Source: a virus
Taxonomy: Duplodnaviria; Caudoviricetes
Direction: 5' to 3' (one strand)
DNA length: 52,334 nt
Virus record (IMG/VR): IMGVR_UViG_3300021356_000025
Location: 1 to 52,334 of that record
Each line of letters starts with the position of its first letter. The stretch's first letter is position 1. The notes below the pieces were generated by a model. That model was not told the DNA's origin and did not search any database. It saw only the letters and a program-made list of their open reading frames with translations. Below are positions 20,176 through 49,881 of the stretch, piece after piece. Position numbers and translations under genes: made by a program.

Positions 20176-23100
20176 CTATAGCTGATTATAAATCGGTATC
20201 AAACGATCCTTCAATGTTCTATCTATTGAGAAACCATTTTCTAAAATTGTATCTACTGTCTCAGCAGTAGGTCCTAAGAAAGGCAGTATAGCATCCGGTG
20301 CGAAACCTTCTATGCCTTTGTCATCCCACTTAGCGTTTTGATGTGACATAGCGCCTAGTGTAAATATACCTAAGAATCCTGACTTATCAATTACTTCACT
20401 TAAATAAGTAGGCCAGTCCATACGATCTGTACGGAAGTATTTATTATCTGTCTCAACGCCGGGCAGTACTGCTGCCAAGCTCTGCTTAGTATATTCTCTT
20501 AATTCCATGCCTAACATAGCCAGCGGCATAGTTGCGAGAGCAGTAATAGCTAATACAGAAAGTGTAGCCGTCAACTGAGGCATACCCTGTCCGCCCATTT
20601 CTTTTCTTCTAGAGACCATCTCTCTATAAATACCGCCCATGATTACTTTGCCGTATGCATAGAAATAAGACTTAAGCTGCCAAACAAGTGCCCAGTGTGG
20701 ATCAGAAGCCCATACCGGTCTTTCAGCTGAGTTTGGTCTTAGTATCGACGATTCAACAAAACGCTGTAATCCACGTTTGATTTTCTTGCCTTCGGGGGTA
20801 GTGAACTTTCTACCACTATTATTCCATGCCATAACTTCTTTAGCAGTTAGACCTAGCTCCTGTAGATACCTTTCAGATCTTGGGTTATCAAACTCATTAC
20901 GTGCATGTTTTAAGATAAACTTAACGCCCATACCAGCTGCAAACTCTCTTGAGAAAGTTGTAAACCACTGCAAAGCCGTGTACTTAAAAAATACATCTGA
21001 CATTTTTCTTACTTTAGGATCCATATAGTCAAGCTCAGCTTGAGTAACCCATGAGTTAGCTACAATCTCATTTGTCACTACACCCAAGTCCCTAGCAAGT
21101 TGTCTTGCTTCGGCACGGTTTTTAATAGTGGCTGGTATTTGTTTTAGTCCTTCTACTAAACCGCCGAACTCTTTTGAGTTAATTACAGGGCCTGCAAGTT
21201 CAGGTAGTGACGCAATAGCCGCAAAAGGTAATATAGTTATAAACTGCAAGAATTGACCGTAACTATTTACCTTTCTCCACATTGGGCTTAGTGGATTGGT
21301 TTGGTAACCCAAATGAGTAGCAATAATCTCTTGGACAACTTCTTTGTCTTCGGGAGAAAGCTTGTCCATTTCTGCCTCAAGTAGGTCATTGCCCTGCTCG
21401 TCTTTAGTATGTTTATTCCATTCCACACGTTTTACAACATGCCTTACATACTGTACAAATGCATCTTGTGGCTCGTGTAAGAAGCCCGCATTGTATAGGC
21501 TTCCTCTGTTTACGTTTAGCGTAAGTTGTAGGGCTTTTTCTACAGCTACTGCTGGATCAGTACCGTCTATCTCTATAGGCTTACCATCAGCTACGCTCTG
21601 GTTGTATCTTAGTACAGCGTTAATAGATTTTCTTACTTCGGCTTCGTTAGCCGTTGGGTCTTGCTGCATTATTAATTCTACAAACCCGTCTAAGTTTTCC
21701 TGTATAGCCATTAAGTTAAGAGCTGTAGGGAAGTAGTTTTGCTGACGACCTATATCAGTATTAGACGGGGCTATGTAATCGTCATAAATACTTTCTAAGA
21801 ACTTACGAACTTGTTGGGCTTTTGGAGATAGCTGATCGGTATCTTCATCGCCCATAGCCTCAAGTAATGCAGCTTGGACTTCGGGGTCATCCATAGAGCC
21901 AACTTGCTCTTCAAATTTATTTTGGAACTCAGCTATCTGTCTAGCTGACGCTCCTACAAAACCTAACCCGCCATCTGCATCTGGGTCTTGAGAGCGTATG
22001 TAGAACATGTCAGCAATTTTTCTACCGCCGTGCAAACGCATAATACCATCCGCCGTTCTTACTATCTTCATTAAGGGGCGTAGTTTAGGATTACGCGCAA
22101 TGTCTGCAAGTGCCCCTCGCCAATGATCGGCAAGTGCCTCACCGCCCATCTTAACAACGGCCTGATTAACTTCCTGTACCATAGCTTTCTGTACGAAGTT
22201 AGGGTTAGCGCTAGTGCCAGCTGTTTCGTAACCTTTTTTCTTGGCGTCTACAACTGCCTCGATGTAGGTTTCAAAGTCTTGAGAAGTGTTACCTAAACGA
22301 CGTTTCATCGTTCTAGTAAACTCCCTATACATAGCTTTTAGTTTTTTCGCTAGCTCTTTAAAATGTTTATCCGTTAGAGATTTTGCTTGTTTGTTGATAA
22401 ACTTCTTAGTTGCCCATCTAGCTACTTGATCTGCATACCACTCTTCAAACGCTAATTCATAGTCATAAGCATTTAGATAGTTTTGGTATCTAGGGTCTTT
22501 TTCAAAAGCTCTAAGCAGTCTAGCTCTTAACGCTGGGTTAGCTGTAGCCGCCGTCATCTCTTCTCTAAATAATGCGTGTCCAAACTCGTGCGCCAGTACA
22601 GCTGCATCTCTGAGAGTATTGCCTGATTCATTTAAAATAATTAAATTAGCTTTGCTGCCTGAATCAAGAAGAGGAACGTACATACCTCTTAAATTGCCAT
22701 TACTCTGACGCATTCTATTAACGGAATCTAAAATCCAATTTACATTCTCTGCGCCAAACTGTTGCTCTAGCTCGCCCATAGTCATATTTACTAGATTTTC
22801 ATAAGTAAACACTCTTGGTGGGTTTTTTAATTTTATAGCTTTTCGCAGATTGTTTATCAGACCCACTAAAAACGACTCTTCTACCCCAGCAACTACTTCA
22901 GGCTCAGCTCTTGTGCTGGACTCCGATTGAAGTCTATCCCGTATCTTAGTCATAATTCTTGGGAACTCTTGGCGCCAGATACCCCTGTCCTGATTATGTG
23001 TTATCTCAGCTGATCCGGTATCTAAAAGAGCCTGTCTAGCTTCTGGGTTCTGTGCCAACGATGCCTCAATTAGCTTTTCCATTAAATCAAGGTTATATCC

Positions 23101-26100
23101 GTTTTTTGTGTTGGCTGACTTTTTACCGACAATCTTCCTCCCGTTTACTCTAGCTGGAGGTAGTCTGTTGTAAGCATCATAGGTGACCTGATCAAACTTG
23201 CCGCTTTTCAGAGTTTGATAGGCATGTTCGACTGATAAAAACTTATATCCATTGTATTGAAATGGGCGGTACGCTAGGTTACTAAGGATAGTGTTTTCAC
23301 CAGTCCCAAAATAGATATTTACCGGTTCGCTCTCAGGCTCAGCTTGCGGTCTGTTAGGTTGAGTAGGCTCAGCTTGCGATCTGTTAGGTTGAGTAGGCTC
23401 AGCTTGGTTGTTAGTAGTAGGTGCTCTACCTGTGCGTCTGTCTGTTTGACGATTTGCGTCTTGTACAGTTTCTGGCTGATCGAGCATTCTATCAACTTCT
23501 GAACGTCCGTCCGTCTCTTGGACTTGATCAGCTGGATCAAATTCCTCATTAACTCTACTGGTCTCACGGCCCATGACGTCTCTTTGGAAGCGCTCGAACG
23601 CATCCATAGCTTCATCTGTACCGGACTGGACAGCTACTCTTTCACCAGTTGGCCTTCCTTCAGAATCGACATCTTCCGCTATAACAGCTTCAGGGCGTTG
23701 TTCAGGAATAGTCTGAGGGGGAGAAAGCAGTTCACCTAAAGTAACTTCTTTCCCGTTTATAACAGCAGCTACTGTGCTGCCTTGATAGTCAGGGACCGGT
23801 TGATTGCCGAGGTCAAATATTGATTCGCCGGATACAACTACATCATATCCTTCTAGTCGTAGTTCTGTAAGTATCTCTTGTAAACCTTTTCTAGCAGCTT
23901 CAAATGGCGTTTGACCTTCGAATTTGCCGTCACCACGGGCTGATGCTAAGCGCTGACCCGCTCGAGTAAGATCAGCTAAATTTACTTTAATACGCTTGCC
24001 ATCTGGCGTTACTAAAACTATGTTTTTAAACTTACTTTTCTTAGCTATTTTAATAGCTCTGTCTAGGAACTCCGCTTCTGTAACGCGATAAACTTTCTTA
24101 TCGACAGGGTCTACCAACTCTATTAAGTTTGAATCAAACGATGTCCTTACAACCTCAAACTTACCGTCGCTATTTTTTCTAATTGATACAACTGCGTTTT
24201 TATTGGCACGTTGTTGTCTTACAGCTTCTCTTAAAGTACTTTCTGAAACTTCGCCTATCTCAGCAGTATCCCATTCTTGAGCGCCAAATGTGGCATCATA
24301 ATCATCTCTTGCTTCTTGAGTGTTATCAAACACTCTAGACCGATCTGCTTTAGGCTCGTAAGTCCCTGTAACAGTTTCTTCGCCCTCTATAGTTTGTACG
24401 CCTTCTTGATTCTCTTGATTTTCTAGGTCAGTTTCTTGGTCAACCTCTGTTTGGGGGGCGTCCTCAACATCTTTAGGTGATCTTTTTTTACCTTGAGTCA
24501 ACTTCTCAGCTGCTGCGGTTAAGTCTGCTAGTCCTATCTTTACTTTAGTACCGTCAGGTCTAGTAACTGTAACGCTTTTAAATTTACTACCTTTTGCTAG
24601 TTCTATAGCGTCAAACAAATCGTCTTCGTTCATTTCACGGATGGAGTCGTCAACGTCTGCATCTCTAATATCAGGCCCTTGTTCTTGCTGATATTTTTTA
24701 GCTCTAGTTTCTAGCGCCTGTTGAAGAGTTGTGACGTTTACAAAACCGCCGTCTGGTTTTAGCCCTTCTGCGTTTTGCATCGCTTCTTGTAAATTTTCTT
24801 GGCTAGTAACCTCTTCTGAAACGACATTTCCATTTACATCAAATGCCTGTACAACTATATCCGAGTTGCCTACTTCGCTTTTAGATTGACTATACCCAAG
24901 TGCTATGGCGAGTGCGCCGTCACTAGCTCTAGATTTTATAACCTCTTGAACAATGCTTTTATCAGTAGAGATGATGGTACCTCTACCGGGTATAAATGCT
25001 GCAAAAGCGCGTTTACCATCTACGGTTACTGGAGTAGCTGTATTGGTGCGAGCTTTAAGAGCTGGAGTATCACCCGCTTGCCACACTGATTTCTTAGTGC
25101 TAGTCGGGTCTACCATTGCTTTTAATTGAGCGTTTATGTCTGCTTGGGACTCTGGAGTAGTAGTCCCTGACATGACGTCGCCATACTGCTCGCCGTCAAC
25201 TGTGTCATTTATGTCTTTGCCCCTTTTCTCGTCCATCATACGGCGGGCCTTGTCCATAACATCAGCTGTTGCGTCAAGAACGCCTGCTTCTGCTACTTTA
25301 CGTACTCCCGTAGCTACGACTGTACCAGCCCCACCAACAGGTGCGCCACCCATAAACCCGCCAAACGCTGCTTCTGCTAAACGGAGTTGCGCTTCTTCAG
25401 CAGTGTAAGTGGGGTCCAAATCCATTCTATTTAGGATGCCCAGACCTTCTTGTGTGAATTCTGTAGTACCTTCTATAGCCCCAGTTCTTAAGGTATTAGT
25501 GGCAACTAGTTTAGCAAAGTCCCCAAAAGTAGAGCTCTCTTTAACAGCTCTCTTTTTAGCTATATTGCCAAGCAGTTTTACTATAGCTACTTCACCGGCT
25601 ACGCCTATCGTAGCTTGAGGTAGGCCCACCAACGCTGCTCTAGCCGCTTGACCTTTGTCAAGCTCTTGGCCAGAGTCCAAAGCTTCACCTAAGTTAGATC
25701 CAGATAGCGGTATATACTCAGCTGTAAATGCGCCGCCTATGGTACCGTTTCTGAAAGTTCTATATAAAGAGTTCGCTAAGTCTTTCTCATCTGGGGTAGC
25801 CGTACCTTTTATGGTTCTTTGTATAGAGTCACGACCGATTCGCTCAGCAATCTTTTTACCGGTATAACCTACACCTTTTTTACCTAAGACGGCTACAACG
25901 CCACCAACGCCGCCGGTTGATACAGTTGTGGCTATACTAGGTACGGCTTGACCACTGAACTTAACAGCTTGTTCAATAAACCCAGTTACAGTTGGTTGTT
26001 CTAAAAACTCACCGAACGTGTCCATGTCTTTTACTGCAAGACTAGCGCTCTCTTCCAACCTTCTGGCTTCGGCTATGTTGTCGGCTATAGATTCTTCGTC

Positions 26101-26310
26101 TGCACCTACAAGCGTTTTAGCTAACGCTTTAAAGTACTCGACATCTGCAGCCATGCCTTCTACGCCCTGCAACATTCCGTCAGAAAAAGCCTCGGACAGG
26201 GTTCTTTTGTTCTCTGTTTCAGGGGTATCCGCTGTTACGGTAGTATCAGGAACGCCGGAATCTAACACTGATTGGGTTAGTGTAGATAGATAGTCGTTAG
26301 GATCGGCCAT
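20176..26310 (-). CDS. Giant internal virion/ejection (polyvalent) protein with NADAR and zincin-like domains
   Basis: 2044 aa; Gly/Ala-rich hydrophobic N-terminus; NADAR-like LSN...F.SVEHAYQ..K...LL.TG; HEFGH plus EE.YAD. Confidence 0.75.
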   Translation of the reverse strand: MADPNDYLSTLTQSVLDSGVPDTTVTADTPETENKRTLSEAFSDGMLQGVEGMAADVEYFKALAKTLVGADEESIADNIAEARRLEESASLAVKDMDTFGEFLEQPTVTGFIEQAVKFSGQAVPSIATTVSTGGVGGVVAVLGKKGVGYTGKKIAERIGRDSIQRTIKGTATPDEKDLANSLYRTFRNGTIGGAFTAEYIPLSGSNLGEALDSGQELDKGQAARAALVGLPQATIGVAGEVAIVKLLGNIAKKRAVKESSTFGDFAKLVATNTLRTGAIEGTTEFTQEGLGILNRMDLDPTYTAEEAQLRLAEAAFGGFMGGAPVGGAGTVVATGVRKVAEAGVLDATADVMDKARRMMDEKRGKDINDTVDGEQYGDVMSGTTTPESQADINAQLKAMVDPTSTKKSVWQAGDTPALKARTNTATPVTVDGKRAFAAFIPGRGTIISTDKSIVQEVIKSRASDGALAIALGYSQSKSEVGNSDIVVQAFDVNGNVVSEEVTSQENLQEAMQNAEGLKPDGGFVNVTTLQQALETRAKKYQQEQGPDIRDADVDDSIREMNEDDLFDAIELAKGSKFKSVTVTRPDGTKVKIGLADLTAAAEKLTQGKKRSPKDVEDAPQTEVDQETDLENQENQEGVQTIEGEETVTGTYEPKADRSRVFDNTQEARDDYDATFGAQEWDTAEIGEVSESTLREAVRQQRANKNAVVSIRKNSDGKFEVVRTSFDSNLIELVDPVDKKVYRVTEAEFLDRAIKIAKKSKFKNIVLVTPDGKRIKVNLADLTRAGQRLASARGDGKFEGQTPFEAARKGLQEILTELRLEGYDVVVSGESIFDLGNQPVPDYQGSTVAAVINGKEVTLGELLSPPQTIPEQRPEAVIAEDVDSEGRPTGERVAVQSGTDEAMDAFERFQRDVMGRETSRVNEEFDPADQVQETDGRSEVDRMLDQPETVQDANRQTDRRTGRAPTTNNQAEPTQPNRSQAEPTQPNRPQAEPESEPVNIYFGTGENTILSNLAYRPFQYNGYKFLSVEHAYQTLKSGKFDQVTYDAYNRLPPARVNGRKIVGKKSANTKNGYNLDLMEKLIEASLAQNPEARQALLDTGSAEITHNQDRGIWRQEFPRIMTKIRDRLQSESSTRAEPEVVAGVEESFLVGLINNLRKAIKLKNPPRVFTYENLVNMTMGELEQQFGAENVNWILDSVNRMRQSNGNLRGMYVPLLDSGSKANLIILNESGNTLRDAAVLAHEFGHALFREEMTAATANPALRARLLRAFEKDPRYQNYLNAYDYELAFEEWYADQVARWATKKFINKQAKSLTDKHFKELAKKLKAMYREFTRTMKRRLGNTSQDFETYIEAVVDAKKKGYETAGTSANPNFVQKAMVQEVNQAVVKMGGEALADHWRGALADIARNPKLRPLMKIVRTADGIMRLHGGRKIADMFYIRSQDPDADGGLGFVGASARQIAEFQNKFEEQVGSMDDPEVQAALLEAMGDEDTDQLSPKAQQVRKFLESIYDDYIAPSNTDIGRQQNYFPTALNLMAIQENLDGFVELIMQQDPTANEAEVRKSINAVLRYNQSVADGKPIEIDGTDPAVAVEKALQLTLNVNRGSLYNAGFLHEPQDAFVQYVRHVVKRVEWNKHTKDEQGNDLLEAEMDKLSPEDKEVVQEIIATHLGYQTNPLSPMWRKVNSYGQFLQFITILPFAAIASLPELAGPVINSKEFGGLVEGLKQIPATIKNRAEARQLARDLGVVTNEIVANSWVTQAELDYMDPKVRKMSDVFFKYTALQWFTTFSREFAAGMGVKFILKHARNEFDNPRSERYLQELGLTAKEVMAWNNSGRKFTTPEGKKIKRGLQRFVESSILRPNSAERPVWASDPHWALVWQLKSYFYAYGKVIMGGIYREMVSRRKEMGGQGMPQLTATLSVLAITALATMPLAMLGMELREYTKQSLAAVLPGVETDNKYFRTDRMDWPTYLSEVIDKSGFLGIFTLGAMSHQNAKWDDKGIEGFAPDAILPFLGPTAETVDTILENGFSIDRTLKDRLIPIYNQL
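23335..23406. repeat. 30-bp tandem repeat, 2.4 copies (QAEPTQPNR[S/P])
   Basis: AGCTTGCG(G/A)TCTGTTAGGTTGAGTAGGCTC at 23341-23370 and 23371-23400, one mismatch. Confidence 0.95.
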
Positions 26311-26321: not shown

Positions 26322-28607
26322 TTATTTTTTGCCAGTAAATGGATGGCGTTGAGTCACTACTGCCCTTAAGGCATCTTCTACTTTCGCATCTAGTTTTCTA
26401 AGGTTTCCAGCTTTTATTACAGAGTCTGTACTTCTGCCATATTGGTCTGTATATTCATACCCAGTGACCTTACCTTTAGATGAGTAAACAGGTCTAACTT
26501 TTTCTATCTCGAAATCAGTTGACTGAATGCTGTCTTTGGCATTAGGTCTAAACCATGCAGCTATATTCCCAACCCAACCGGCATCGTTATCTTGGGCATA
26601 GCCAGCAACCGTAGTACTAATCAAAGCGCCAAATGCTCTTGTCCATTCGTCTCTAACTTGTGGATCTTCCGTATTACGTATTCTAGCTAACACAGTTGGT
26701 AAAAACTGTCTCACTAGGCCGTTAGAAGTGCCCTTACCGACGTAGTTTTCTTTGAAATCATCACCGAACACTACCTTGTTAACGCCTGTATAGAACGTAT
26801 CTAAGTCCTCGTTTAAGCTTTCGTACTGCCCTTCGCGCCATTGTTTAGCTTCTTGATTTAATTTTCTTACAGCTATTCTATTTTTTTCTTGGTTTATTTG
26901 ATTTGTCTGAGCTTGATTAGTAGATAAAGTAGGGTCGCCTGTAGAAAACAAGTTGTCGATACTAGATCTGATTGCTTTTCTGTTACTAGCATCAGGCTCA
27001 TTAGCGGCCAAAACTGCTCGCATCATAGCTCGGTCTTTTGTATTAGCTAATCTCGTGTCCTTTAGGTCTTTTATACCTTTCTGTCTAAGTTGTTCAGCGG
27101 CATCTTTTAGAGTCTGAGGATCTATTTTTATTTTCCCAGAATCTATTTCCTCATCAATTTGCTGATCAGACTTACCTTCCAAGTCCTTAGTTAGTTTAAC
27201 TAATCCAGCAGTTGTGTACTTAGTACCCACTTCTTCGTCAATTTGGTTTTGTATGTTCTGTGCCTCTTCCATAAGATCTCTTTCTATAAGAGCATCTCTA
27301 CGGGACTCCAAATCTCTTATCTTCTTAACAGAAGCTTTATTAGCCCTGTCAAGCACTCGGTTACGGTCTTTTTCTACCTTATCTATTTCATTATCATATT
27401 GCTCACCGCCTATCTTACCCGATGCAAATCTCTCTTTAAGGGCGGCTACTTCAGCATCAAATTCTTCCATCTGTACACCGAAGGAGCGTTTTGTTGTTGG
27501 ATCTATTAAGTTTTTATCAATGTTGGCACGCTCAATATCCCCTCTCATGGAATCAGCAGTTTTATAGAATCGCCAACCTTCATCCGCGGCAGCGAGAACA
27601 GTTTCTTCTGCTTGGGCACGGGCTCCACCCTCTTCAAACGTGGTTCTCTCGCCAACTTGTACATCTGCTATATTAGTTTGTATTTTTCGCTCAATCCCTT
27701 GACCGACCGTGTCATCTTCTGGGTCTATATCTTGCTGTACAGTGGACAGCACGTTCTGAAAATCCTCAAAAGAGGCGCCAGATGCTAAGAGGTCTAGAAC
27801 TCCGGACATTGCTTTTTGGTCGCCTGTAGCTGCCACGACGTCAATTATATCGGCTAACTGAGCGTTGGCTTCTAATCCATCTAGAGCATCTCGTTCTGTT
27901 TCTGCTGCGTTTGCATCAGCCCCCACTACATTTTGCTCTTGTACAATTCTAGTAATATTTACAGAACTTGCGTCGCCTGCTGTTTTTCTATAGCTTAAAT
28001 CTACTAGATTGGTTAGTTTCTCAGGGTCAAAAAATACAACATTATCCTGTGCATCGGCAGTTCTGTTTTCAGTTATAGCTGAGTCTACGCCTTCAGCAGT
28101 TCTTACAGTAACAGCATATCTACCAGACCCGTCTGGGGCTGGGACTATACCGGTGGCTGTAAGACCGGGGCCAAGCATTTTTTCGGCATTAGCATTTATC
28201 TGCTGTAGGCCTATATCCAAAACGGCAGCATCGCCATTTGCTATGCCTTCATTGAATTTAGCTTTATCAATACCTGTAAAATCCTTGTTAACTAGGCCAG
28301 CGGCGCTAAACAGTTCGATAGAGCTATTAGCTTTCTCTACTTTAATCTGCCTGTCTTGCACATTTTGAAGGCGGGCTTCTTCCTTCTCTTTAATAGCAGC
28401 AATCTGACTATTGTATTCTTCTGTTTTTAGATTAGAACGCTCTATTTCGGTTTGCTGCCTATCCTTGAACTGTTCTGCTTCTAAGTTAGCACGCTCTATT
28501 TCGTCTTGCTGTCTATTGCGAAACTCGTTATCCCTGCGTTGCTGATTCATGCCTTGTATAGCACTGAACCCCGCTAGAAATGCTGAACCTACATCTTGAG
28601 TAGCCAT
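26322..28607 (-). CDS. Internal virion/ejection protein
   Basis: 761 aa, helical and charged, upstream of the giant protein as in podovirus ejectosome clusters. Confidence 0.6.
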   Translation of the reverse strand: MATQDVGSAFLAGFSAIQGMNQQRRDNEFRNRQQDEIERANLEAEQFKDRQQTEIERSNLKTEEYNSQIAAIKEKEEARLQNVQDRQIKVEKANSSIELFSAAGLVNKDFTGIDKAKFNEGIANGDAAVLDIGLQQINANAEKMLGPGLTATGIVPAPDGSGRYAVTVRTAEGVDSAITENRTADAQDNVVFFDPEKLTNLVDLSYRKTAGDASSVNITRIVQEQNVVGADANAAETERDALDGLEANAQLADIIDVVAATGDQKAMSGVLDLLASGASFEDFQNVLSTVQQDIDPEDDTVGQGIERKIQTNIADVQVGERTTFEEGGARAQAEETVLAAADEGWRFYKTADSMRGDIERANIDKNLIDPTTKRSFGVQMEEFDAEVAALKERFASGKIGGEQYDNEIDKVEKDRNRVLDRANKASVKKIRDLESRRDALIERDLMEEAQNIQNQIDEEVGTKYTTAGLVKLTKDLEGKSDQQIDEEIDSGKIKIDPQTLKDAAEQLRQKGIKDLKDTRLANTKDRAMMRAVLAANEPDASNRKAIRSSIDNLFSTGDPTLSTNQAQTNQINQEKNRIAVRKLNQEAKQWREGQYESLNEDLDTFYTGVNKVVFGDDFKENYVGKGTSNGLVRQFLPTVLARIRNTEDPQVRDEWTRAFGALISTTVAGYAQDNDAGWVGNIAAWFRPNAKDSIQSTDFEIEKVRPVYSSKGKVTGYEYTDQYGRSTDSVIKAGNLRKLDAKVEDALRAVVTQRHPFTGKK

Positions 28608-32757: not shown

Positions 32758-33879
32758 TTAAGACTGTAGAGTATCTAAGCAGATAACGCCGAAGTCTTGT
32801 ACAGAGCCACTTGCGTCGCTGTTGTACTTAGGCTTACGTAGACCGAAGATCTTACCTACAGAAATACCTGACTGGTTACCGTAGTCGAAAGTATCTTCAA
32901 CCATTTCAGGTAGACCGATGTCAGCCATAGCAAGAGCTTGAGCACCACAGAATAGAGCACGACCGCCGTTCTCAGTACCGGTTGCGCCCCACTTAGAGCC
33001 AGAAGCAGCACCAGAAGTGTTGTATACGTGACGGAACTCATGAACGATAACGCCATCAACCATTACGCTTGAAGAACCAGCGAACAATGCGTTGCTTGCG
33101 CCACGAACGCCAGCGTTACGAACGTTTTGAATGAAGTCGTCATCCATTTTGAGGTCAGCCATTTGCTGTGGAGTAACGAACATGTGGAACACTTCTTCGC
33201 CTGCACCAGCACGGATACCACGAATGTAGCGATCTTTAGCTTTAGCTTTCAAGCTAATGATAGCTTTGTAAGTTAACTTAACGTGACCGTTAGTAGTAGT
33301 GTCACCAGCAGCTAGCTCATTGCTAGTTTTTAGTTTGAAGTGACGATCAGAACTTGGACCAGATACGTCTGAAGCAAACTCAAGATCAGCAAGATCGTGA
33401 CCAGCGCTTGCAGAAGCAGCACGTAGCGTACCGTTGTTTTTGTAAGTGTAAGCAACGCCTGAAAGGGTCAAGAACGCTAGTTGGTCAATACGGTCAGCCA
33501 TTGCATAAGCAAGAGCGTCACGAGATTGCTCACGGAAGTTAACAACAGTTTTTTGGTCAGCCATGCGGCCAGCAATTCTGTTAGCAAAACGTAGTTGATC
33601 TAACTGAATGCTGATGTCATAGGCGCGTAGCGCTTCTTCGTTGCCTTCTAGAGTGTTATCACCAGTGATACCGTCTCCAGTCATGTCAGCAAGCAAAGTG
33701 ATGTTAGCTTTTGTGCCTTTAGCTGATTTAGTAAGCTCAGTAATACGCTGAACCATAGCGTTTGAGCCAGTTCCAGCGAACTGATTGATGAAAGATTGGT
33801 TACGAGCAACTTTCCAGAAGTCACGTGACCATGCTTGTAGTTGGTCGCCTGTTAGCGTACCGAAATTAGTTAAAGCCAT
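32758..33879 (-). CDS. Major capsid protein, N4-gp56/DUF4043 family (start revised to 33879)
   Basis: AGGAGG RBS; G..GDNTLEGNEEAL, IQLDQLR, LFCGAQAL, DYGN, G.RK..Y, DFGVI..DT. Confidence 0.9.
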   Translation of the reverse strand: MALTNFGTLTGDQLQAWSRDFWKVARNQSFINQFAGTGSNAMVQRITELTKSAKGTKANITLLADMTGDGITGDNTLEGNEEALRAYDISIQLDQLRFANRIAGRMADQKTVVNFREQSRDALAYAMADRIDQLAFLTLSGVAYTYKNNGTLRAASASAGHDLADLEFASDVSGPSSDRHFKLKTSNELAAGDTTTNGHVKLTYKAIISLKAKAKDRYIRGIRAGAGEEVFHMFVTPQQMADLKMDDDFIQNVRNAGVRGASNALFAGSSSVMVDGVIVHEFRHVYNTSGAASGSKWGATGTENGGRALFCGAQALAMADIGLPEMVEDTFDYGNQSGISVGKIFGLRKPKYNSDASGSVQDFGVICLDTLQS

Positions 33880-33914
33880 GATAGGCCTCCTTATAAATAG
33901 ACAAAAATAAATAT

Positions 33915-34100
33915 GTGGCAAAACGCCACGCTCTTTTAGCCGACTTAAAGGAGCGGCTAATCCGTAATTCCCGTATCGTGGGACAACGAACTAGCGCTTT
34001 TTAACGAGGTGCGACCTCGACAGGTTTTACGCCTTGTGTAGGCGAAGGATACGTTTTTTACGGCTACGGGCCGACCAGTTATCGTACTGATAGACGAACC
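33915..34100 (-). ncRNA. Structured MCP leader RNA: predicted tandem pseudoknot array
   Basis: Six adjacent stem-loops, each loop complementary to its own 3' tail (see findings). Confidence 0.55.
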
Positions 34101-34108
34101 TAAAATAA

Positions 34109-34137
34109 ATAGTATCTTAAGTCTAAAAACTATGCAA
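34109..34137 (-). promoter_or_regulatory. Sigma70-type promoter for the MCP leader
   Basis: TTGCAT-N17-TACTAT on the minus strand. Confidence 0.7.
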
Positions 34138-34138
34138 A

Positions 34139-34609
34139 CTAATTAAGGGGATTTGATAGATAATCCATACCATCCCATAAATCTTGTATCTCCCTAGTTA
34201 TCTTGTCTAGGTCGTACTTACCCAAATCACCGGCTGCTCGTTCTGCTTTGTCTACAGTTGTCTGCATTTGGATGACTTGTTCTTTGAGTTCTTTAACTTC
34301 GTTTTTGATTTCCAGTAGCTTCTCTTGCTGTTCGGCTATGGTTTTAAGATTTACGCCTAGTTCAGCTAGTTTGCCCTGCAACTTTGGGACGTCATTATCA
34401 GTAAGTTGTGTTTCTATAAGGGCTACTTGTTCAGTTAATGGAACAATATTCGGTATTTTTCTAGCCTCAACGCCCTCTAAACGAGAATACAGGCTACTAG
34501 CTGTCCACACGGTGCCACCAATACTGGTGCCAATCGTTAGCACTATTGCGATCCACACACCCTTGAAGCTGGTGTTTCCTATCTTTAATTCAGTATTTTC
34601 TAGGCTCAT
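34139..34609 (-). CDS. Membrane-anchored coiled-coil protein
   Basis: N-terminal TM (VWIAIVLTIGTSIGGTVW), long heptad region, ends NPLN. Confidence 0.7.
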   Translation of the reverse strand: MSLENTELKIGNTSFKGVWIAIVLTIGTSIGGTVWTASSLYSRLEGVEARKIPNIVPLTEQVALIETQLTDNDVPKLQGKLAELGVNLKTIAEQQEKLLEIKNEVKELKEQVIQMQTTVDKAERAAGDLGKYDLDKITREIQDLWDGMDYLSNPLN

Positions 34610-36854: not shown

Positions 36855-37886
36855 TTAGAGGATGTCTCCTCGTAAACGTTTAAGGGTAGCTTCAGGAAGC
36901 GCATCGAACTCTTCTTCCGTCATGTTACTAAGGTCATACTGGCTTTCGCCTTTCGCAGAAGAGCTTTCTCCCGGCATCTCTGGCGGTTGTGAATCGGCAG
37001 CTTTTAGTTTGCGTGATACTTCTTTACGCTTCTTAGCTACTTCATCGACAGCGTTAGCTGTGCTTGCTAGTGATGGAGCTTCTTCATTCTGTACTAGATC
37101 ATATTCACGCACAACGAATCTGGCTGCTTTAGACAATGCTGCAACTGCGTTTTCGCCTTTCATCATAAAGGCATCACGTAATTCTACAACTTCATTAGTT
37201 AAAGATTCATCGAACTGATCAGACGCTTTGTTGAACTGTGGGAACGCGCTCTCTAGCTCAGTAGCAGCTTGTTGTAGAGCAGTAGCTTCTCTGTTCTGAG
37301 ATACTGTTTGAGACATCTTCTGAGTCATTTCAAACTCAATCTGTGCTCTTTCAGCTTTACGTATCTCAGTTCTAATTGAGGTTGCCTTTTCTACTTCACC
37401 GTCAAGCAAAGCATTTTGATACTCAACTTCTTTAGCAGCGAAGTCATACTCTTCAGGGGCTTCGTCCTCTGCCGCCTGTACAGCTTTCATATCTTCAAGT
37501 TGCTTCTGCAACTCTTTCTGTTTAGCTAGTACTTCGTCCAGTCTAGACTTAGGAACCATAGGCTTCTTAGACTTGGGCTCAGCGGGCTTCTCTTCTACCT
37601 CTGGCTCAGGTTCTGGCTCAGGTTCTTTTAGAGCTTCCGGCTCTTCCTCAGACTCTGCTTCAGGTTCAACATCTTCTGCAGGCTCCTCGGTCTCTTCTTC
37701 GGCCACAACTTCTTCGGATTCTTCGGCAACAGTCTCTTCAACAGTTTCCTCCTCTTTAGCTTCTGGCTCTGGCTCGTCTGGGAAACTTAGATCGATGGGG
37801 GGTGTATCATCCTCTTCGATTGGATCAGCTCCCGGCATTACATCGAAAGTCGTTGTGTTTACGTTTTCGTCTTTATCGTCACTCAT
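36855..37886 (-). CDS. Capsid scaffolding protein
   Basis: Acidic E/P-rich N-terminus, VPKSR.DEV, coiled coil, MTEEEFDALP C-terminus; follows the portal. Confidence 0.75.
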   Translation of the reverse strand: MSDDKDENVNTTTFDVMPGADPIEEDDTPPIDLSFPDEPEPEAKEEETVEETVAEESEEVVAEEETEEPAEDVEPEAESEEEPEALKEPEPEPEPEVEEKPAEPKSKKPMVPKSRLDEVLAKQKELQKQLEDMKAVQAAEDEAPEEYDFAAKEVEYQNALLDGEVEKATSIRTEIRKAERAQIEFEMTQKMSQTVSQNREATALQQAATELESAFPQFNKASDQFDESLTNEVVELRDAFMMKGENAVAALSKAARFVVREYDLVQNEEAPSLASTANAVDEVAKKRKEVSRKLKAADSQPPEMPGESSSAKGESQYDLSNMTEEEFDALPEATLKRLRGDIL

Positions 37887-37895: not shown

Positions 37896-40037
37896 CTATT
37901 GGTTGTTAGTGGGCCTAATGTTAGGTATGTCCACCTGTTGGGGTTTAACTGCTTCTTTCTTTGCGGCAGTCTGCATAGCAGTTGCAGCAATACGGGTTGC
38001 AGCATTAGTTTGGGATTGATTCGTTCTAGTCTGATTAGTTAGAGCGGCAAGTTCTCTACGTAGATCTAGCTCTTGCTGCTTCATGCCAATCTTAGCTTGT
38101 AGCTCTTGCATACGGATCTGCGGATTAGTAACTTCTGCACTCTGTACTTTAGAGATATTGACAGCCGCTTCTGATTGTAGCTTCTGAACTTCTGCTTGCA
38201 TCTTAGCTAGTTCTAACTGTACTTGCTGCATCTGTATCTCTTGTTGTGCAGCTGCTGCTTGCATCTGTTCTTCAGACTGCTCTACGCCAGTCAACATACG
38301 AATGCGTTTAGCTAGCTCACCTTTTCTAGCTAGATGTGAGTACTCAATGATTGCATCATCTGGAATAGCTACGCCGACTTGACGTAAGTTAAGTGCTTCC
38401 GCGAATTGAACTTCATCGAAGCTATCACGAGCTGGGGCAGTAGCAATAACTACATCGTACTCACCAAGAGTAAGATCATTAATAATAGTGCCTTCAGGAG
38501 TCATCTGATTGACGACCATTTCTTCGCGTGGCTTCATAGGATCATCTTCGTTAGTAACCTGAATAACGCGTTGCTCCGTGTAGAACCCTTGAATAAGGTC
38601 GAGTACACGTTCTGCTAGATACTGGCGTGACTTACGCAAGTTATCTAGAGGTACTTGAATCATTATTGCGCCACGATTCTGCTTGGCTTGGATAGCTACG
38701 CCAGATACTTCCGCACTATCTGTACCTAACATAGAATCGTTGATACCTGAGATAGATTGAATGTTAGCCTGCGCTTTCATCGCAATACGATCAAGGCCAC
38801 TTGGGATCTGGTTGGGTTGTATCTTAGACGGTGGGTTGGAGCCTCTGTTATATTCAAGAACAAGGCCTGTCTCTGCACCATGCTCCTCGAGGTCATCCGC
38901 TGTCATACCAACTAACGAGCCTGACTCTACCATCCAACCTGAGTTAGCTGTGGTGTTAACAATGTGTAGTTCTTGTGAAGCAATCTTGTTTAGCTGCTCT
39001 TGTGGGCTCAACAAGTTACGAATCATACCAAACGGACGCCCTCGTCTAAAGTAGGCGAAGTATGGAACAATTGTGAAGTCGTGATAAGGAGACCAATCGT
39101 CGTGCAGTACAACGTGGTCACATGTTACAGTCCAACGAACTTTCTTTATCATTTTACTGATAATGTTCAGACCGTACTGTTTAGCGAACTTTTTCTTCTT
39201 ACTATCAGACCAAGTCGAAGGAGCGTGTCGTTGATCGCCTGTGTTTGGGTCTACATAGAAGTCGCATCTGCTAAGCTTCTTATGTTGACGTTCAATTACT
39301 CGAAGTGAGCGTACGTTGCGATACTCATCGTCCCCCGGAACCTGTGCCCCGAAGTAATCATCTTCTTGATCGCCGAAACGGTTCTCAAAATACTCAACAG
39401 AATCCCTGCCAAAAGTATTACCGTTCTCTGCTATAAATCTTAACTCTTCTGCTTTCTTTTTGCCATAAAGTTCTTCAATTTCATCAAGAGTCATCCACTT
39501 AGTTTCGAACACTTCGTTCCAGTTCTTGGGATCAGCGTCTTTAGCATCTGGATCGATGAGAATGTCTAGTGGGTCTTTGGCAGTGATTCGTATCTCACCT
39601 TCAACGTGGTCAGAGAAGTCCATGCGTACATCAAAGTAACCACGGCCATCTAGTATCAGACCGTCGCTAAATACTTGCTGTTCTACCCAATCGAGCTTGT
39701 TGTTATCTGCAATCTGCATGTATAACTTAGTAAGGGTATGTGCTACTTCTTCGTCGCCACCTCTTCGTGGTTTGAACTTAACGTCAGCTCTTCGTGATGA
39801 CTGTTCACCGAGTACAGTATTAATAGTAGGAAGAACTGTGTTAATAGTAAGGGCTGGACGACCCTCTGATTCTAGCGCCATTCTATCGTAGTCATCCCAT
39901 TGATCACCTCGATAGTAGGCATCACATTTTTGTGCCATCTCGATGTAATCTATATGGCCGTTATCTCTAGCCCGTTCGTATCTGTCCCATTGCGCTCGTG
40001 CTATTTCTTGCTGTTTGGCAGAACTTAGCTTCTTCAT
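37896..40037 (-). CDS. Portal protein (P22-like)
   Basis: YY.G.QW, RP.LTIN, DG...G.G, Q..LNK, SG.AI...Q, Q-rich C-terminal barrel. Confidence 0.9.
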   Translation of the reverse strand: MKKLSSAKQQEIARAQWDRYERARDNGHIDYIEMAQKCDAYYRGDQWDDYDRMALESEGRPALTINTVLPTINTVLGEQSSRRADVKFKPRRGGDEEVAHTLTKLYMQIADNNKLDWVEQQVFSDGLILDGRGYFDVRMDFSDHVEGEIRITAKDPLDILIDPDAKDADPKNWNEVFETKWMTLDEIEELYGKKKAEELRFIAENGNTFGRDSVEYFENRFGDQEDDYFGAQVPGDDEYRNVRSLRVIERQHKKLSRCDFYVDPNTGDQRHAPSTWSDSKKKKFAKQYGLNIISKMIKKVRWTVTCDHVVLHDDWSPYHDFTIVPYFAYFRRGRPFGMIRNLLSPQEQLNKIASQELHIVNTTANSGWMVESGSLVGMTADDLEEHGAETGLVLEYNRGSNPPSKIQPNQIPSGLDRIAMKAQANIQSISGINDSMLGTDSAEVSGVAIQAKQNRGAIMIQVPLDNLRKSRQYLAERVLDLIQGFYTEQRVIQVTNEDDPMKPREEMVVNQMTPEGTIINDLTLGEYDVVIATAPARDSFDEVQFAEALNLRQVGVAIPDDAIIEYSHLARKGELAKRIRMLTGVEQSEEQMQAAAAQQEIQMQQVQLELAKMQAEVQKLQSEAAVNISKVQSAEVTNPQIRMQELQAKIGMKQQELDLRRELAALTNQTRTNQSQTNAATRIAATAMQTAAKKEAVKPQQVDIPNIRPTNNQ

Positions 40038-40039: not shown

Positions 40040-41686
40040 TTATGCACTCATCGGTGATTTATCTCGTTTTGTTTTAAACATGTGAGGTAGTTTGTCTCTC
40101 CAAGACGGTTGATAAGCCTGTGCTGGTGCTTCATAAGTAGCAAACTCAGTCATCATTAAACCAATCCACGCTAACGCATCTACCTGATCATCATGTATAC
40201 CATTTGGGAATCGCAGTAGTTCGGCCACAAGTGGGCCTGTAAACTGTTCTTCTCTAGGCAAATATACCATGCCCTGTTGCATACGGCCTTGTATTGCTCG
40301 CGCTCGAGCTTCTTTATCCCTTCGTCCAGTTTTTAAATCTTTGAAATACGCTTCGTGTAACCCTCGTTCACGTACGCGTTTTTCCAAGAACGGGCCTAGT
40401 GCCATCTCAATATGGCCTTTCTCAATACCTATTATAGAAGGTCGCCATTCTTCGTAGAGATCGAGTATCCTTTCTACAATCTCAAAACCGTCGTACTTAC
40501 CTCTTACTACGTCTACAACATACAGGTTATCTTCGGCATCTACCCCAATAACCATACCTACTGTGTAGTCATTGCGATCTCGTTTACCAATCGCCAAATC
40601 CCACGCGCAGTAGTAACGCATCTCGTCAAGGTCCACATCTTCGTAGTCGAAGTATTGAATCATGTCCCTTGTAAAATAATCACCATCATCAGCAACTGGG
40701 TTCTGCTGATAAAGAGCTGACCAATCTCGAGGGCCAACTGCTTTCTCAATTCTCTTTAGGGCTTCTTCGTCGTAGCGTTCTCTATGTAACGCTTCGCCTG
40801 CTTTTCGAAACTCTTCATCAACTTCAGCTCTTGCTGGGTAGTTGACAACTTCCCATTGTTCGCCGTTATTGTCCGCTGCCTTGAGCAACCGCCCAGCCAA
40901 ATCGTCGTCGTGCCAACGGGTGAGAATGACGAGCACTCCACCGCCCGGGGCGAGACGGGTATACGCTGTTGATGTGTACCAGTCCCACGTACTGTCTCTA
41001 GCGTTTTGACTTTCAGCATCATCCCTATTCTTTACCGGATCATCGATAACAAGGATATGGGCGCCTTTACCTGTTATGCCCCCGCCAACACCAGCAGCAA
41101 CAAAACCACCACCAGTACTAGTAAGCCAAGCTTCCGCTGATTGGCTGTCTGGGTCAAGTCTAGTTTTGAACGCAGTTTTGTAAGTTGGCTCACGCAAGAG
41201 TTGACGTACTTTACGACTGAATCCCATAGCGAGCGAGCCTGAGTACGAACAGCTAATAAACTCGTGTTCAGGGTGGCGACCAAGGTGCCAAGCTGGGAAA
41301 GCAACTGAAGCAAGCGTGCTTTTACCATGTCTAGGCGGCATAAAGAGCATAAGCCTTGGAGACTTTTTCTCAGCAACGTCTTTAGAGAATTGCTCAAGCC
41401 TGTTACAAATGTCTTTGTGGACCCAGCCGGCTTGGTATTCTGGATTGAATCGCTCAACGAAAGGGAGTAATCTTTTCCTTGTGAGGAACCTGAGCGCGAG
41501 TTCTGCTTTTGCTTTTTCTTCAACTGAAACCTCCTCTGCCGTAATGACAGGTTGTTCAACGTCAATTGGTGTTGGTAACGCTTCTGCATAGTCTGCTTTA
41601 CAATAAACGCAGACGTCGTCTTCTCCAGAATATAAAGTCTCTGGATGTAACTTCTTACAACGTATGCAAGTTTTCTTTTCTACCAC
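40040..41686 (-). CDS. terL: Terminase large subunit
   Basis: MPPRHGKS, ITGKGA, IDDP.K, TRWH.DDL, LYQQ.P, WDLA, FPNG.HDDQVDA. Confidence 0.95.
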   Translation of the reverse strand: MVEKKTCIRCKKLHPETLYSGEDDVCVYCKADYAEALPTPIDVEQPVITAEEVSVEEKAKAELALRFLTRKRLLPFVERFNPEYQAGWVHKDICNRLEQFSKDVAEKKSPRLMLFMPPRHGKSTLASVAFPAWHLGRHPEHEFISCSYSGSLAMGFSRKVRQLLREPTYKTAFKTRLDPDSQSAEAWLTSTGGGFVAAGVGGGITGKGAHILVIDDPVKNRDDAESQNARDSTWDWYTSTAYTRLAPGGGVLVILTRWHDDDLAGRLLKAADNNGEQWEVVNYPARAEVDEEFRKAGEALHRERYDEEALKRIEKAVGPRDWSALYQQNPVADDGDYFTRDMIQYFDYEDVDLDEMRYYCAWDLAIGKRDRNDYTVGMVIGVDAEDNLYVVDVVRGKYDGFEIVERILDLYEEWRPSIIGIEKGHIEMALGPFLEKRVRERGLHEAYFKDLKTGRRDKEARARAIQGRMQQGMVYLPREEQFTGPLVAELLRFPNGIHDDQVDALAWIGLMMTEFATYEAPAQAYQPSWRDKLPHMFKTKRDKSPMSA

Positions 41687-41859: not shown

Positions 41860-42399
41860 TTATCCCTCTGGTTCTAAATAAGTAGTGTCTTTACCCGCTA
41901 TTTCTAGCAGCTCTTCGTCTGTTAGTCGCTCTAGCTGTTTTGCTGTAGCGTTTAGGTTGACATTTACCTGTACTGCATTATCTGGGGCAGTTAAACCATG
42001 TAATTTAACCAGAGAATCCACCGTATTTTTCATTTCGGTGGCTGTAGCAGAGGAATTATACGCCTCCATGTACATAGCATGCGCGTTTGTGCGTTCGAAC
42101 TTTACTTCTTCGCGCATTTGTTCTCTAAAATACTGTAACGCAGTCTGGACATCTGGCTTTTTGGAGGCTTCAAGCGCTGTTTTGTAGCTTGCATAGCCTG
42201 CACCACGACCAGCTGCCGCGATTGTCATGCCACTAGCGATCAACATCACTAGTTTTTCTTGCTGTACTGTTAACGCACTAAGCGAAAGTCCCATGTAAGG
42301 TACATGAGACTGGAATTCTGTCCTAGCAGATACAGCATTAGTGGACGATTCTGAGACCGCCTCGTCGTTTTTCACTAAGTTCACCGCCAAGTTCTTCAT
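41860..42399 (-). CDS. terS: Putative terminase small subunit (start uncertain)
   Basis: LT.QQEK...G.TIAAA...AGY HTH; L.KLHGL; LTDEELL; upstream of terL. Confidence 0.65.
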   Translation of the reverse strand: MKNLAVNLVKNDEAVSESSTNAVSARTEFQSHVPYMGLSLSALTVQQEKLVMLIASGMTIAAAGRGAGYASYKTALEASKKPDVQTALQYFREQMREEVKFERTNAHAMYMEAYNSSATATEMKNTVDSLVKLHGLTAPDNAVQVNVNLNATAKQLERLTDEELLEIAGKDTTYLEPEG

Positions 42400-48647: not shown

Positions 48648-48875
48648 ATGAAGAACTGGACCTATGTAGATCTTATTGAGTATTCCGCAGGCTTTTACCT
48701 AGTTGCCGGTATGCCTCAAGACTGGGATGGCATGGACGACGGACAACTGTTCATAGGACTTGAAGATAGAGCGTGGCAACCGCTCGAAAACAAGGATGGC
48801 GAATATATCTGGGAGCAGATAGAAACAACGGCTAGAAGCCTAAATGAAACTTTTGAACTTGGAGTAAACATATGA
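48648..48875 (+). CDS. Hypothetical protein
   Basis: GAGG RBS; WQP.E...G..IW..I. Confidence 0.6.
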   Translation: MKNWTYVDLIEYSAGFYLVAGMPQDWDGMDDGQLFIGLEDRAWQPLENKDGEYIWEQIETTARSLNETFELGVNI

Positions 48876-49870
48876 GAACGATTCGACCTAGCCATCTATT
48901 CGATGAGCTAAAAGCAAATGGCCTTGCCAAAGTGAACAGCTGTATACACGCTGGTCCCGGCGAGGGTAAGTCACAACTCGTGTATCAATTCGCAGAAAGT
49001 ATCGGAGCAAAGATGTATGAGCTCCGTGCCAACCTCTTCGATCCTGTTGATGTACGTGGTGGATTGAAAGTTGTAGAGATGGAAGACGGTACATACAAGA
49101 CACGTTACGGTGTGCCTGAAGATTATCCGCCATCAGACTACGAAGGTACAGTTGTATTGTTTATCGATGAGATAACAAACGCACCGAAAGCAACACAGAA
49201 CGCCCTGCTGCAGTTGTTGCTTGACGACAAGATTGGTACATATCATCTACCGAAGAACACAATCAAGATTGCAGCTGGCAACCGTGCTCAAGACCGTGCC
49301 GCTGTCCATGAGATGCCAACACCTGTCAAAAACAGATTTGCTCACTACACATTGGAAGCAAACATTGATGACTGGGTACAGTGGGCATTGAAGAATGACA
49401 TCGATGAATCACTGATTGCATTCTTACGTTACAGACCAATGCTGCTCAGCGCAGTTGATTCCAAAGAGAACGCATTCCCAACACCCCGTGCATGGGAGAT
49501 GCTTAATCGCAAACTACCATTTATCAAAGATGACTTCTACGGTTGCGCATCATTGATTGGTGACGGACCAGCTGGTGAGTACATTGCATTCAAATCAATC
49601 TACAAAGAAGTACCTGACATCGATGCATTAATCAAGAGCCCAAGTACAACCAAGGTTCCAGAGAATGCATCAGTACTGTATGCAATTGCTGGTGCACTTG
49701 CATCACGAGTTACTGATAAGAACTTCGATGCAATCATGAAGTATGTAAGACGCATGCCTGCAGAGTATCAAGTAGTTATCATCAGAGACTGCATGGCTAA
49801 AGACAAAGGGTTGATGTCACAACCCGCATTTACTAAATGGACGCAAGACAACGCGTCAGTATTATTATAG
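48872..49870 (+). CDS. MoxR-like AAA+ ATPase
   Basis: GPGEGKS, DVRG, LFIDE, AAGNR, NRF.H, TPR.W. Confidence 0.9.
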   Translation: MRTIRPSHLFDELKANGLAKVNSCIHAGPGEGKSQLVYQFAESIGAKMYELRANLFDPVDVRGGLKVVEMEDGTYKTRYGVPEDYPPSDYEGTVVLFIDEITNAPKATQNALLQLLLDDKIGTYHLPKNTIKIAAGNRAQDRAAVHEMPTPVKNRFAHYTLEANIDDWVQWALKNDIDESLIAFLRYRPMLLSAVDSKENAFPTPRAWEMLNRKLPFIKDDFYGCASLIGDGPAGEYIAFKSIYKEVPDIDALIKSPSTTKVPENASVLYAIAGALASRVTDKNFDAIMKYVRRMPAEYQVVIIRDCMAKDKGLMSQPAFTKWTQDNASVLL

Positions 49871-49881
49871 GAGGAAGCATC

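Follow-up and report, generated by a model that had tools for sequence, protein, structure and literature searches.

Why should the capsid gene of a phage be preceded by a long non-coding leader that appears to be highly structured? The question is raised by the viral contig IMGVR_UViG_3300021356_000025 of the IMG/VR database (Duplodnaviria; Caudoviricetes), analysed here as a single stretch of 52334 bp estimated to be 89% complete and referred to below as the window. On its minus strand, a promoter and the major capsid protein (MCP) gene are separated by a leader of ~220 nt, which an earlier note, made from the letters of the window, had read as six tandem H-type pseudoknots, each a stem whose loop pairs with its own 3' tail. 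Three functions had been offered for it: an anti-defence decoy, a sensor of a ligand or protein, and a translation or stability element. Comparison with homologues supports the six hairpins and three of the six pseudoknots, and points to control in cis of the capsid mRNA as the most likely function.

Covariation of the nested hairpins

Relatives of the locus were collected by four scans of viral contigs, with the capsid proteins of the window and of the relatives L072, L106 and L173 as queries; each scan confirmed 458-598 relatives and 80 of these were retained per scan. The 286 loci gathered include 266 with enough upstream DNA, and these yield 133 distinct leaders of 228 nt. A covariance model (R1; 162 positions, 35 nested pairs) was built from 53 representatives, and a model-guided alignment (A4) contains 100 sequences, 92 of them distinct. 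Covariation was scored by a G-test with average product correction (APC), by shuffles, by slid controls and by parsimony counts.

All six hairpins, as the earlier note had drawn them, are supported by covariation across homologues. In A4, 98.0% of the cells in nested pairs are standard-paired, against 86.4% in shuffles and 29-41% in slid controls. Both sides have changed in 22 of the 35 nested pairs, with 330 doubly changed cells compared with 88 in shuffled alignments (0/500 shuffles as high); by hairpin, pairs changed on both sides are 5/5 in H1, 3/4 in H2, 3/5 in H3, 3/5 in H4, 4/4 in H5 and 3/5 in H6. The abundant G.U pairs are compatible with the capsid-sense strand only.

Within the window, the 170-nt leader tiles into six non-overlapping units, each a hairpin with a 3-bp loop-tail complement. 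This tiling holds against shuffled controls, since 1000 dinucleotide shuffles averaged 1.5 units (sd 0.96, maximum 5) and none reached six. The minimum-free-energy fold is modestly better than that of shuffles (z = -2.35). Single second stems mean little alone, because 51% of chance hairpins also carry a 3-bp loop-tail complement. The differences among the units of one molecule, which had been taken for internal covariation, are no evidence, and the real covariation comes from homologues.

The motifs noticed at first reading are all present: five UCG openings, the CGU(U)AAAA linkers, UUCGU...ACGAUA in units 1 and 5, and a GUGGC/GCCAC hairpin with a U-rich run. H1 and H5 share the loop ACGAUA, with YCGU preceding each, and in each of H2-H4 UWAAA comes after C-G/G-C closing pairs. 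Spacers of 0 nt are found at H1/H2, unit 3/H4 and unit 4/P5 (P5 being the long stem of unit 5), and since the helices abut in this way a stacked rod is plausible.

Proposed loop-tail pairings of the six units

For the loop-tail pairings, 111 leaders were aligned with MAFFT, and the G-test with APC was used to rank every one of the 22366 column pairs. The top ranks are mostly stem pairs, and loop-tail pairs occur at ranks 11 and 27 (unit 3), 30 (unit 4) and 50 (unit 1), against an expectation of ~0.03 in the top 50 for 12 pre-specified pairs; the pairs ahead of them lie in stems or, in some cases, in adjacent columns or the 3' region. The 12 pseudoknot pairs of units 1-4 are 92.3% paired (88.8 +/- 0.3 when shuffled; slid controls 11-41%) and contain 50 doubly changed cells (18.2 +/- 3.8 when shuffled; 0/500 shuffles as high). 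Seven of the 12 have changed on both sides, compared with 4.1 in shuffles (4/500 as high), and a further alignment, A2, gave similar results. In an alignment-free test of loops and tails, own pairings exceeded permuted ones in units 2-4 (0/2000 in each), and no difference was found in unit 1 (own 3.87, permuted 3.86). Units 1, 2 and 4 have the classical H-type geometry, with a first loop of 1-2 nt and a third loop of 4-7 nt, whereas the first loop is missing from unit 3.

Units 1, 3 and 4 are H-type pseudoknots, in which the pairing of the loop with bases outside the hairpin is backed by covariation. In unit 1, the pair 34094-34085 is UA in 87 leaders, CG in 13 and UG in 11, is unpaired in none of the 111, and shows at least 5 and at least 7 column changes on the MCP tree. 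The divergent relative L265 replaces (U)CGU:ACG(A) with CUUG:CAAG. Two other partners were considered for the 5' CGU, namely ACG in the tail of unit 2 and ACG in the 3' strand of P5, which leave C.A in 9 and 13 sequences; they were rejected because the change from U to C at 34094 is compensated only at 34085.

Unit 3 has the highest-ranking loop-tail pair, 34039-34020, which is GC in 64 leaders, AU in 31 and GU in 16 and is unpaired in 0/111; its neighbour 34038-34021 occupies rank 27. The two columns of the former have changed at least 13 and at least 17 times on the capsid-gene tree, with no A.C among 100 sequences. In unit 4, the pair 34011-33997 (rank 30) is CG in 89 leaders and UA in 8, with 13 unpaired, and 34012-33996 is GC in 109 and AU in 2. 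Divergent leaders re-letter the pairing of unit 4, to CAUA:UAUG in L232 and L260 and to CGCAU:AUGCG in L276.

The other three proposed pairings fared less well. The stem of unit 2 is supported, as H2 shows GC/UA/CG and CG/GC switches and is paired in 100% of cases. Its loop-tail pairing is weak, because the third pair is standard in just 79/111 leaders (A.A in 15, U.C in 11) and the core is a self-complementary CG; this third pair is compensated in L106/L107/L162, L173, L227 and L072/L092. Unit 5 is ambiguous between a pseudoknot and the nested stem P5, since its UCGU:ACGA pairing (33989-33986 with 33979-33976) competes with inner P5 and covariation cannot choose a partner where the CGU:ACG core is invariant for either. 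The outer part of P5 covaries (UA/GU/CG at 33990-33961, UA to AU at 33993-33958), and the change from U to C at 33989 is compatible with P5 (C-G) and incompatible with the optional fourth pseudoknot pair. For unit 6, the proposed CUC:GAG pairing is refuted: the pair 33951-33933 is C.A in 81/108 sequences, and the complement is specific to the window.

Linkage to the capsid gene and conservation

The promoter, leader and capsid gene remain together in relatives while the gene upstream changes. R1 finds one match per source in 100/100 sources (window included; E <=7e-35) and in 99/99 sources (E <=3e-24), the two sets overlapping and two weak additional matches (L023 and L057; E 0.3 and 0.51) having been removed before counting. 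Its sole match in the window up to E = 1 is a core of 165 nt at 33934-34099, with 177.7 bits. A search with a leader 16-mer found 80 further viral loci, and all 73 usable ones have a capsid ATG 57-77 nt downstream; of the other seven, four are cut by a contig end and three are chance matches in unrelated sequence. The same 16-mer search in bacterial and archaeal genome contigs gave 109 stretches, mostly by chance, and among the 80 listed two contain the leader. These two belong to metagenome-assembled genome (MAG) contigs labelled Dehalococcoidales and Verrucomicrobiales, which are probably mis-binned phage.

The leader is more conserved than the silent positions of the gene that follows it. 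Mean pairwise identity is 0.747 for the leader, 0.472 for four-fold degenerate capsid sites, 0.528 for third codon positions and 0.839 for the capsid protein, and leader identity exceeds that of four-fold capsid sites in 99.9% of 1500 sequence pairs. Columns that are unpaired in the nested model are nearly as conserved (0.730) as paired ones (0.770).

The leader belongs to an uncultured marine phage clade of several hundred contigs. Seven further studies, with the labels marine, seawater, estuary or sponge metagenome or simply metagenome, have DNA runs for which stretches sharing 70-75% of the sampled words of window positions 33300-34400 are listed; two runs that may be the source of the window are excluded from this listing.

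Promoter and predicted transcript start

The promoter and the ~220-nt leader are as the earlier note had described them, and the capsid ATG lies at 33879 behind AAGGAGG. TTGCAT-N17-TACTAT (34137-34109, minus strand) was the single exact match in a pattern search of the whole window. Among 56 relatives that were aligned, its TTG and TA.TAT never change and the spacer does, and the relaxed pattern TTGNNN-N16-18-TANNAT is found in 95/99 relatives. In these 95, the end of the -10 element and the first paired C of the leader are 7-12 nt apart (modes 8 and 12), with one case of 18 nt. The usual distance from a -10 element to the start of transcription is the basis for placing the start, which is predicted near A34101/G34100; at this spacing the transcript would start 0-5 nt before the first pseudoknot stem.

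RNA data were available as contigs from four metatranscriptome runs, in which uncovered parts and small shares count as no evidence. In two studies, RNA-library contigs (33834-34189 and 33860-34089) extend across the leader into the beginning of the capsid gene, which is weak support for transcription because such libraries can carry DNA.

In many relatives (for example L003:545-585), an inverted repeat, AATATTAG-N5-CTAATATT, is made up of the promoter spacer and the -10 element and so overlaps the latter. Arms of 6-9 nt were found in 54/95 promoters. The repeat looks like a candidate operator for a dimeric DNA-binding protein that would govern the capsid promoter.

The last hairpin, the ribosome site and the terminator-like hairpin

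Within the ribosome site of the MCP gene, UUAUAAGGAG at 33896-33887 is complementary to the H6 loop, CUCCUUUAAGU, and the two regions are paired with each other in the minimum-free-energy fold of the window. A loop motif NNCC together with a recognisable Shine-Dalgarno (SD) sequence is present in 103/111 leaders. The base after CC and the base before GGAG form a standard pair in 75 of these 103 (UA 49, AU 23, UG 3), and contiguous extension of the loop-SD pairing beyond its core averages 1.33, against 0.945 +/- 0.113 for permuted loops and ribosome sites (1/2000 as high). In L095 and L161, UCCAUUAAA stands opposite UUUAAUUGGA or its L161 variant. The conserved anti-SD sequence, with some covariation beyond the GGAG core, is consistent with a leader that may sequester its SD. 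P5 and H6 each include AGC at 33958-33956 and hence compete for it.

Between the last hairpin and the ribosome site there is a terminator-like hairpin. A hairpin of -4 kcal/mol or better precedes the ribosome site in 118/133 leaders and is lacking in 15/133; by eye, it is missing in L072 and L173. At least five U within the next 8 nt follow the hairpin in 21/118 leaders, and as the U tract is this scarce the hairpin does not appear to be a general termination platform.

Some relatives depart from this arrangement. In the MAG-binned contig L342 (5679-5867), whose leader measures 189 nt, the hairpin that normally follows H6 sits within the H6 loop, after CUCC, and the other parts are kept. In L227 (407-560) and L265 (436-589), units 1-4 are kept and the 3' half is different, with no clear P5 or H6 and no CUCC loop; L227 retains a hairpin with the loop GCGAUAA, followed by a U run. 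Given the differing 3' halves of these two leaders, the element looks modular.

Probable cis control of the capsid mRNA

The explanation favoured here, which we hold with about even confidence, is that the element is a cis-acting multi-pseudoknot 5' leader of the capsid mRNA which sequesters the 5' end of the message and gates its ribosome site; cis control of the stability and translation of this mRNA is the most likely function overall. Host RNA polymerase would start at a dedicated promoter within the structural-gene block, and the first ~165 nt would form a series of six helices that abut one another, in which at least units 1, 3 and 4 close as compact H-type pseudoknots with A-rich third loops. 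Because the pseudoknot of unit 1 uses bases at, or no more than ~5 nt from, the predicted start, the 5' end would be buried, and this might shield the message from 5'-end-dependent decay. The loop of the last hairpin, CUCCUUUAA, would pair with the SD region 50-60 nt downstream and in this way set or gate the access of ribosomes. The sequences show the structure, its conservation, its linkage to the capsid gene and the loop-SD complementarity with some covariation, whereas the transcript start, the stabilising effect and the direction of any translational effect are inferred. A trans factor may read the conserved loops, and the conserved single-stranded bases leave room for an additional partner. 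Of the functions first offered for the leader, a translation or stability element is the one that fits its fixed linkage to the capsid gene (73/73), its single match per source, the predicted start close to the element and the anti-SD loop.

Stabilising or SD-sequestering leaders are known from the 5' stem-loop of ompA, the leader of T7 gene 10 and the pseudoknot operator of T4 gene 32. The capsid leader resembles these in the structured 5' end of a highly expressed mRNA, in a pseudoknot before an AU-rich ribosome site and in the anti-SD sequence, but it is far larger, with six helices and no fewer than three pseudoknots, and shows strong conservation in its loops and linkers. We know of no homology between it and any of the three.

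Several observations weigh against the explanation favoured here. The shuffle controls ignore relatedness among sequences, which is offset only by the parsimony counts on the capsid-gene tree, and recombination could inflate these counts. The loop-tail pairing of unit 2 is weak and that of unit 5 ambiguous, as described above. The RNA-library contigs carry no starts, ends or marks of processing, and one of them extends upstream past the promoter. At the loop-SD pair one position beyond the core, 28/103 leaders have a non-standard combination (UU 17, AA 9, AG 1, CU 1), some leaders have CACC loops, and L227 and L265 show no CUCC hairpin by eye. An anti-SD sequence ahead of the most highly expressed late gene is also counter-intuitive. 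In the cultured phages KPP25, AP1 and phiA008, gaps of 160-197 nt precede the capsid genes and no similar motifs were seen by eye, these gaps not having been searched with the model. Finally, a simple 5' hairpin would suffice for protection, and the length of 165 nt, together with the conservation of loops and linkers, hints at some further function or partner.

Alternative explanations

In the first alternative, the leader is a translational operator for an RNA-binding protein of phage or host, for example in autoregulation by free capsid or scaffold protein. The conserved modules would be the binding sites, and occupancy would stabilise a fold that hides the ribosome site. Precedents for operators of this kind are T4 gene 32, ribosomal protein S15, the alpha operon and the autoregulation of the P22 scaffold. 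The modules common to H1 and H5 (ACGAUA loop with YCGU) and to H2-H4 (closing pairs and UWAAA), the near-equal conservation of unpaired and paired columns, and the complementarity of the H6 loop to the SD would all suit an operator. On the other hand, the gene upstream is variable among relatives, and a covarying pseudoknot pair already explains why the loop bases of unit 1 are conserved. We regard an operator as possible but unlikely.

In a second alternative, the exoribonuclease-resistant RNAs would have a counterpart in this phage leader, where a stacked rod of pseudoknots with A-rich third loops, beginning at the first transcribed bases, would block sensing by RNase E, RNase J or ribonucleases released by defence systems. 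This is an improbable reading in our judgement. Directly abutting H-type pseudoknots are known from the upstream pseudoknot domain of the tobamovirus 3' untranslated region (UTR) and from the PK2-PK4 array of transfer-messenger RNA (tmRNA), and the presence of several in one RNA is the likeness to the leader, which also gave a faint match to RF01101, an Rfam pseudoknot of a tRNA-like structure (12.1 bits, gathering score 44). These are the 3' UTR of a plant virus and the RNA of trans-translation, whereas the leader is the 5' leader of a DNA-phage mRNA with no match to them in sequence or model, and ARAGORN found no tRNA or tmRNA.

It is very improbable that the leader is a riboswitch-like sensor, in which one or more compact pseudoknots with A-rich tails would bind a small ligand or ion and shift the arrangement of P5, H6 and the anti-SD. 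Units 2-4 do consist of a stem, a short loop, an A-rich tail and a 3-bp second stem, like small pseudoknot aptamers; such second stems would be marginal without a stabiliser, the single-stranded bases are strongly conserved, and there is the competition of P5 and H6 for AGC at 33958-33956. The likeness to preQ1-I aptamers (RF00522) drawn earlier holds for this architecture (compact H-type, first stem of 4-5 bp, A-rich third loop of 6-7 nt, 3-bp second stem), the outline of which is found in units 2 and 4, but not for the match itself, which is a faint one on unit 4 (33998-34019, minus strand; gathering score 39, reached 12.4 bits; E 4.5 when 225 nt were searched) with no counterpart in a 1101-nt search. 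The loops of preQ1-I aptamers are longer; those of the leader, at 4-5 nt, are too short for the known pocket and leave little room for any. Further differences from preQ1-I are that the units are serial and stacked end-to-end and that the gene downstream encodes capsid, not queuosine functions, which offers no metabolic logic. The terminator-like hairpin does not appear to be a general expression platform. In a search of Rfam 15, no family reached its gathering score (best 9.9-16.1 bits against 36-75), so that the comparison with described families proposed in the earlier note returned none.

According to the decoy idea, which we consider highly improbable, the leader would act in trans as a decoy or sponge, soaking up a host ribonuclease toxin, as a mimic of type III antitoxins, or another RNA-binding factor of defence or host. 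Phages can evolve pseudo-ToxI, as stated in the available text of PMC5086642. With ToxI, CptI, TenpI and pseudo-ToxI, as they are presented there, the leader has in common serial short pseudoknot units, A-rich stretches between them and a hairpin after the array, and with pseudo-ToxI also the phage context (PMC5086642). Tandem small pseudoknots with A-rich linkers recall ToxI-type antitoxins on the same textual basis (PMC5086642), a strong promoter would give abundant RNA, and the terminator-like hairpin comes next in the window. However, type III antitoxins are defined by near-identical tandem nucleotide repeats, whereas the stems and loops of the leader differ and Tandem Repeats Finder (33850-34200, minimum score 30) returned 0 rows. 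Type III antitoxins are also cut into monomers by the toxin that they neutralise, and a phage mimic would resemble the antitoxin repeat of its host. In type III systems, a Rho-independent terminator and an endoribonuclease toxin gene follow, whereas here the gene downstream is that of the major head protein, and the array is fused to a ribosome site. The capsid ATG lies at a fixed distance in 73/73 usable loci, each MCP-anchored source has a single copy, a good U tract is present in 21/118 hairpin-bearing leaders with 15/133 lacking the hairpin altogether, and the last hairpin is tied to the SD. The anti-defence reading was not borne out.

Control of transcription in cis, through attenuation by the terminator-like hairpin or through a put-like RNA that modifies RNA polymerase for read-through of terminators in the long structural-gene block, can be given hardly any weight, for although in the window a promoter is followed by structured RNA, by a hairpin with its U-rich run and by the gene, with ~25 kb of co-directional structural genes downstream, the adjacent U tract is absent in most relatives and the hairpin missing in some, no alternative pairing between leader and hairpin was found, and no Rfam family matched.

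Gene order around the leader

The leader lies in a structural-gene block on the minus strand of the window (Table 1). A gap of 259 nt separates the stop of a 156-aa open reading frame (ORF) from the capsid gene, and virion genes continue beyond the latter. The closest cultured capsid proteins are the major head proteins of Pseudomonas phages KPP25 and phiR18, with 52.6% identity.

Table 1. Coordinates of the leader elements and of structural genes in the window
Feature	Position	Strand	Details
Sigma-70-type promoter	34109..34137	minus	-35 TTGCAT 34137-34132; 17-nt spacer; -10 TACTAT 34114-34109
Unit 1, H-type pseudoknot	34074..34097	minus	(U)CGU 34097-34094 with loop ACG(A) 34085-34082
Hairpin H1	34091-34087 with 34078-34074	minus	Loop (U)ACGAUA
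Unit 2	34052..34073	minus	H2 34073-34070 with 34064-34061, then A-rich linker UAAAAA
Unit 2, possible loop-tail pairing	CGU 34068-34066 with ACG 34054-34052	minus	
Unit 3, pseudoknot	34020..34044	minus	H3 34044-34040 with 34034-34030
Unit 3, loop-tail pairing	ACA 34039-34037 with UGU 34022-34020	minus	Adjoins H4
Unit 4, pseudoknot	33995..34019	minus	H4 34019-34015 with 34009-34005
Unit 4, loop-tail pairing	CGC 34013-34011 with GCG 33997-33995	minus	Past linker UUAAAAA
Unit 5	33956..33995	minus	Long stem P5 33995-33986 with 33965-33956, enclosing H5
Hairpin H5	33983-33980 with 33972-33969	minus	Loop ACGAUAC
Unit 6, hairpin H6	33938..33958	minus	33958-33954 with 33942-33938
H6 loop, 11 nt	33953-33948 (anti-SD)	minus	CUCCUUUAAGU; anti-SD CUCCUU
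Terminator-like hairpin	33915..33929	minus	GUGGC-GUUUU-GCCAC, then AUAUUUAUUUUU; consensus scan; covaries by eye
Capsid ribosome site	33877..33897	minus	UUUAUAAGGAGG (33897-33886); AUG 33879-33877; AAGGAGG present
MCP gene, 373 aa	32758..33879	minus	ATG 33879; phrog_334 major head protein, E 1.6e-82
156-aa ORF upstream of capsid promoter	34139-34609	minus	Stop at 34139
Portal	37896-40037	minus	Several unnamed ORFs come next
Large terminase	40040-41686	minus	
Small terminase	41860-42399	minus	

The upstream neighbour of the capsid promoter varies among relatives (L002, L005, L009 and L022), with at least four unrelated C-termini, which locates a mosaic boundary at the promoter. The downstream virion block contains two very large ORFs (13634-18775 and 20176-26310, minus strand) of 1713 and 2044 aa. 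Comparison with PHROG gave no match for the 761-aa ORF at 26322-28607 or the 343-aa ORF at 36855-37886. On the plus strand, three adjoining genes at 48872-51742 encode a MoxR-like AAA ATPase, a protein with nucleotide modification associated domain 5 (Nmad5) and a DUF2201 metallopeptidase/VWA-like protein, and this set may be a nucleotide or DNA modification module.

Relation to earlier work and significance

A 2023 survey of intergenic regions in IMG/VR reported 8495 covarying candidates, five of them upstream of the major capsid domain PHA00201 (PMC10690425). As far as its main text extends, the survey drew on the same data source and dealt with motifs of a like kind, which covary and lie in intergenic regions upstream of phage genes; its candidates measure 29-151 nt, that text mentions gene 32, and it contains no pseudoknot or functional analysis (PMC10690425). 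The leader motif may already be among the 8495 candidates, undescribed (PMC10690425). A full-text search of the literature, from which the supplements of the 2023 catalogue were absent, found no tandem pseudoknots in phages and no description of such a pseudoknot or capsid leader. Structured mRNA leaders are known, but no described counterpart was found for one of 165 nt with six abutting helices and at least three pseudoknots backed by covariation.

The alignment and the covariance model make the leader open to probing and to reporter assays, and it might serve synthetic biology in marine hosts as a module that stabilises a message or gates its translation. If resistance to exoribonucleases were true of it, the capsid message would outlive the late shut-off of host mRNA, and the last hairpin would hand over the ribosome site. 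For DNA phages, the leader offers a compact model for post-transcriptional control of the yield of their most abundant protein.

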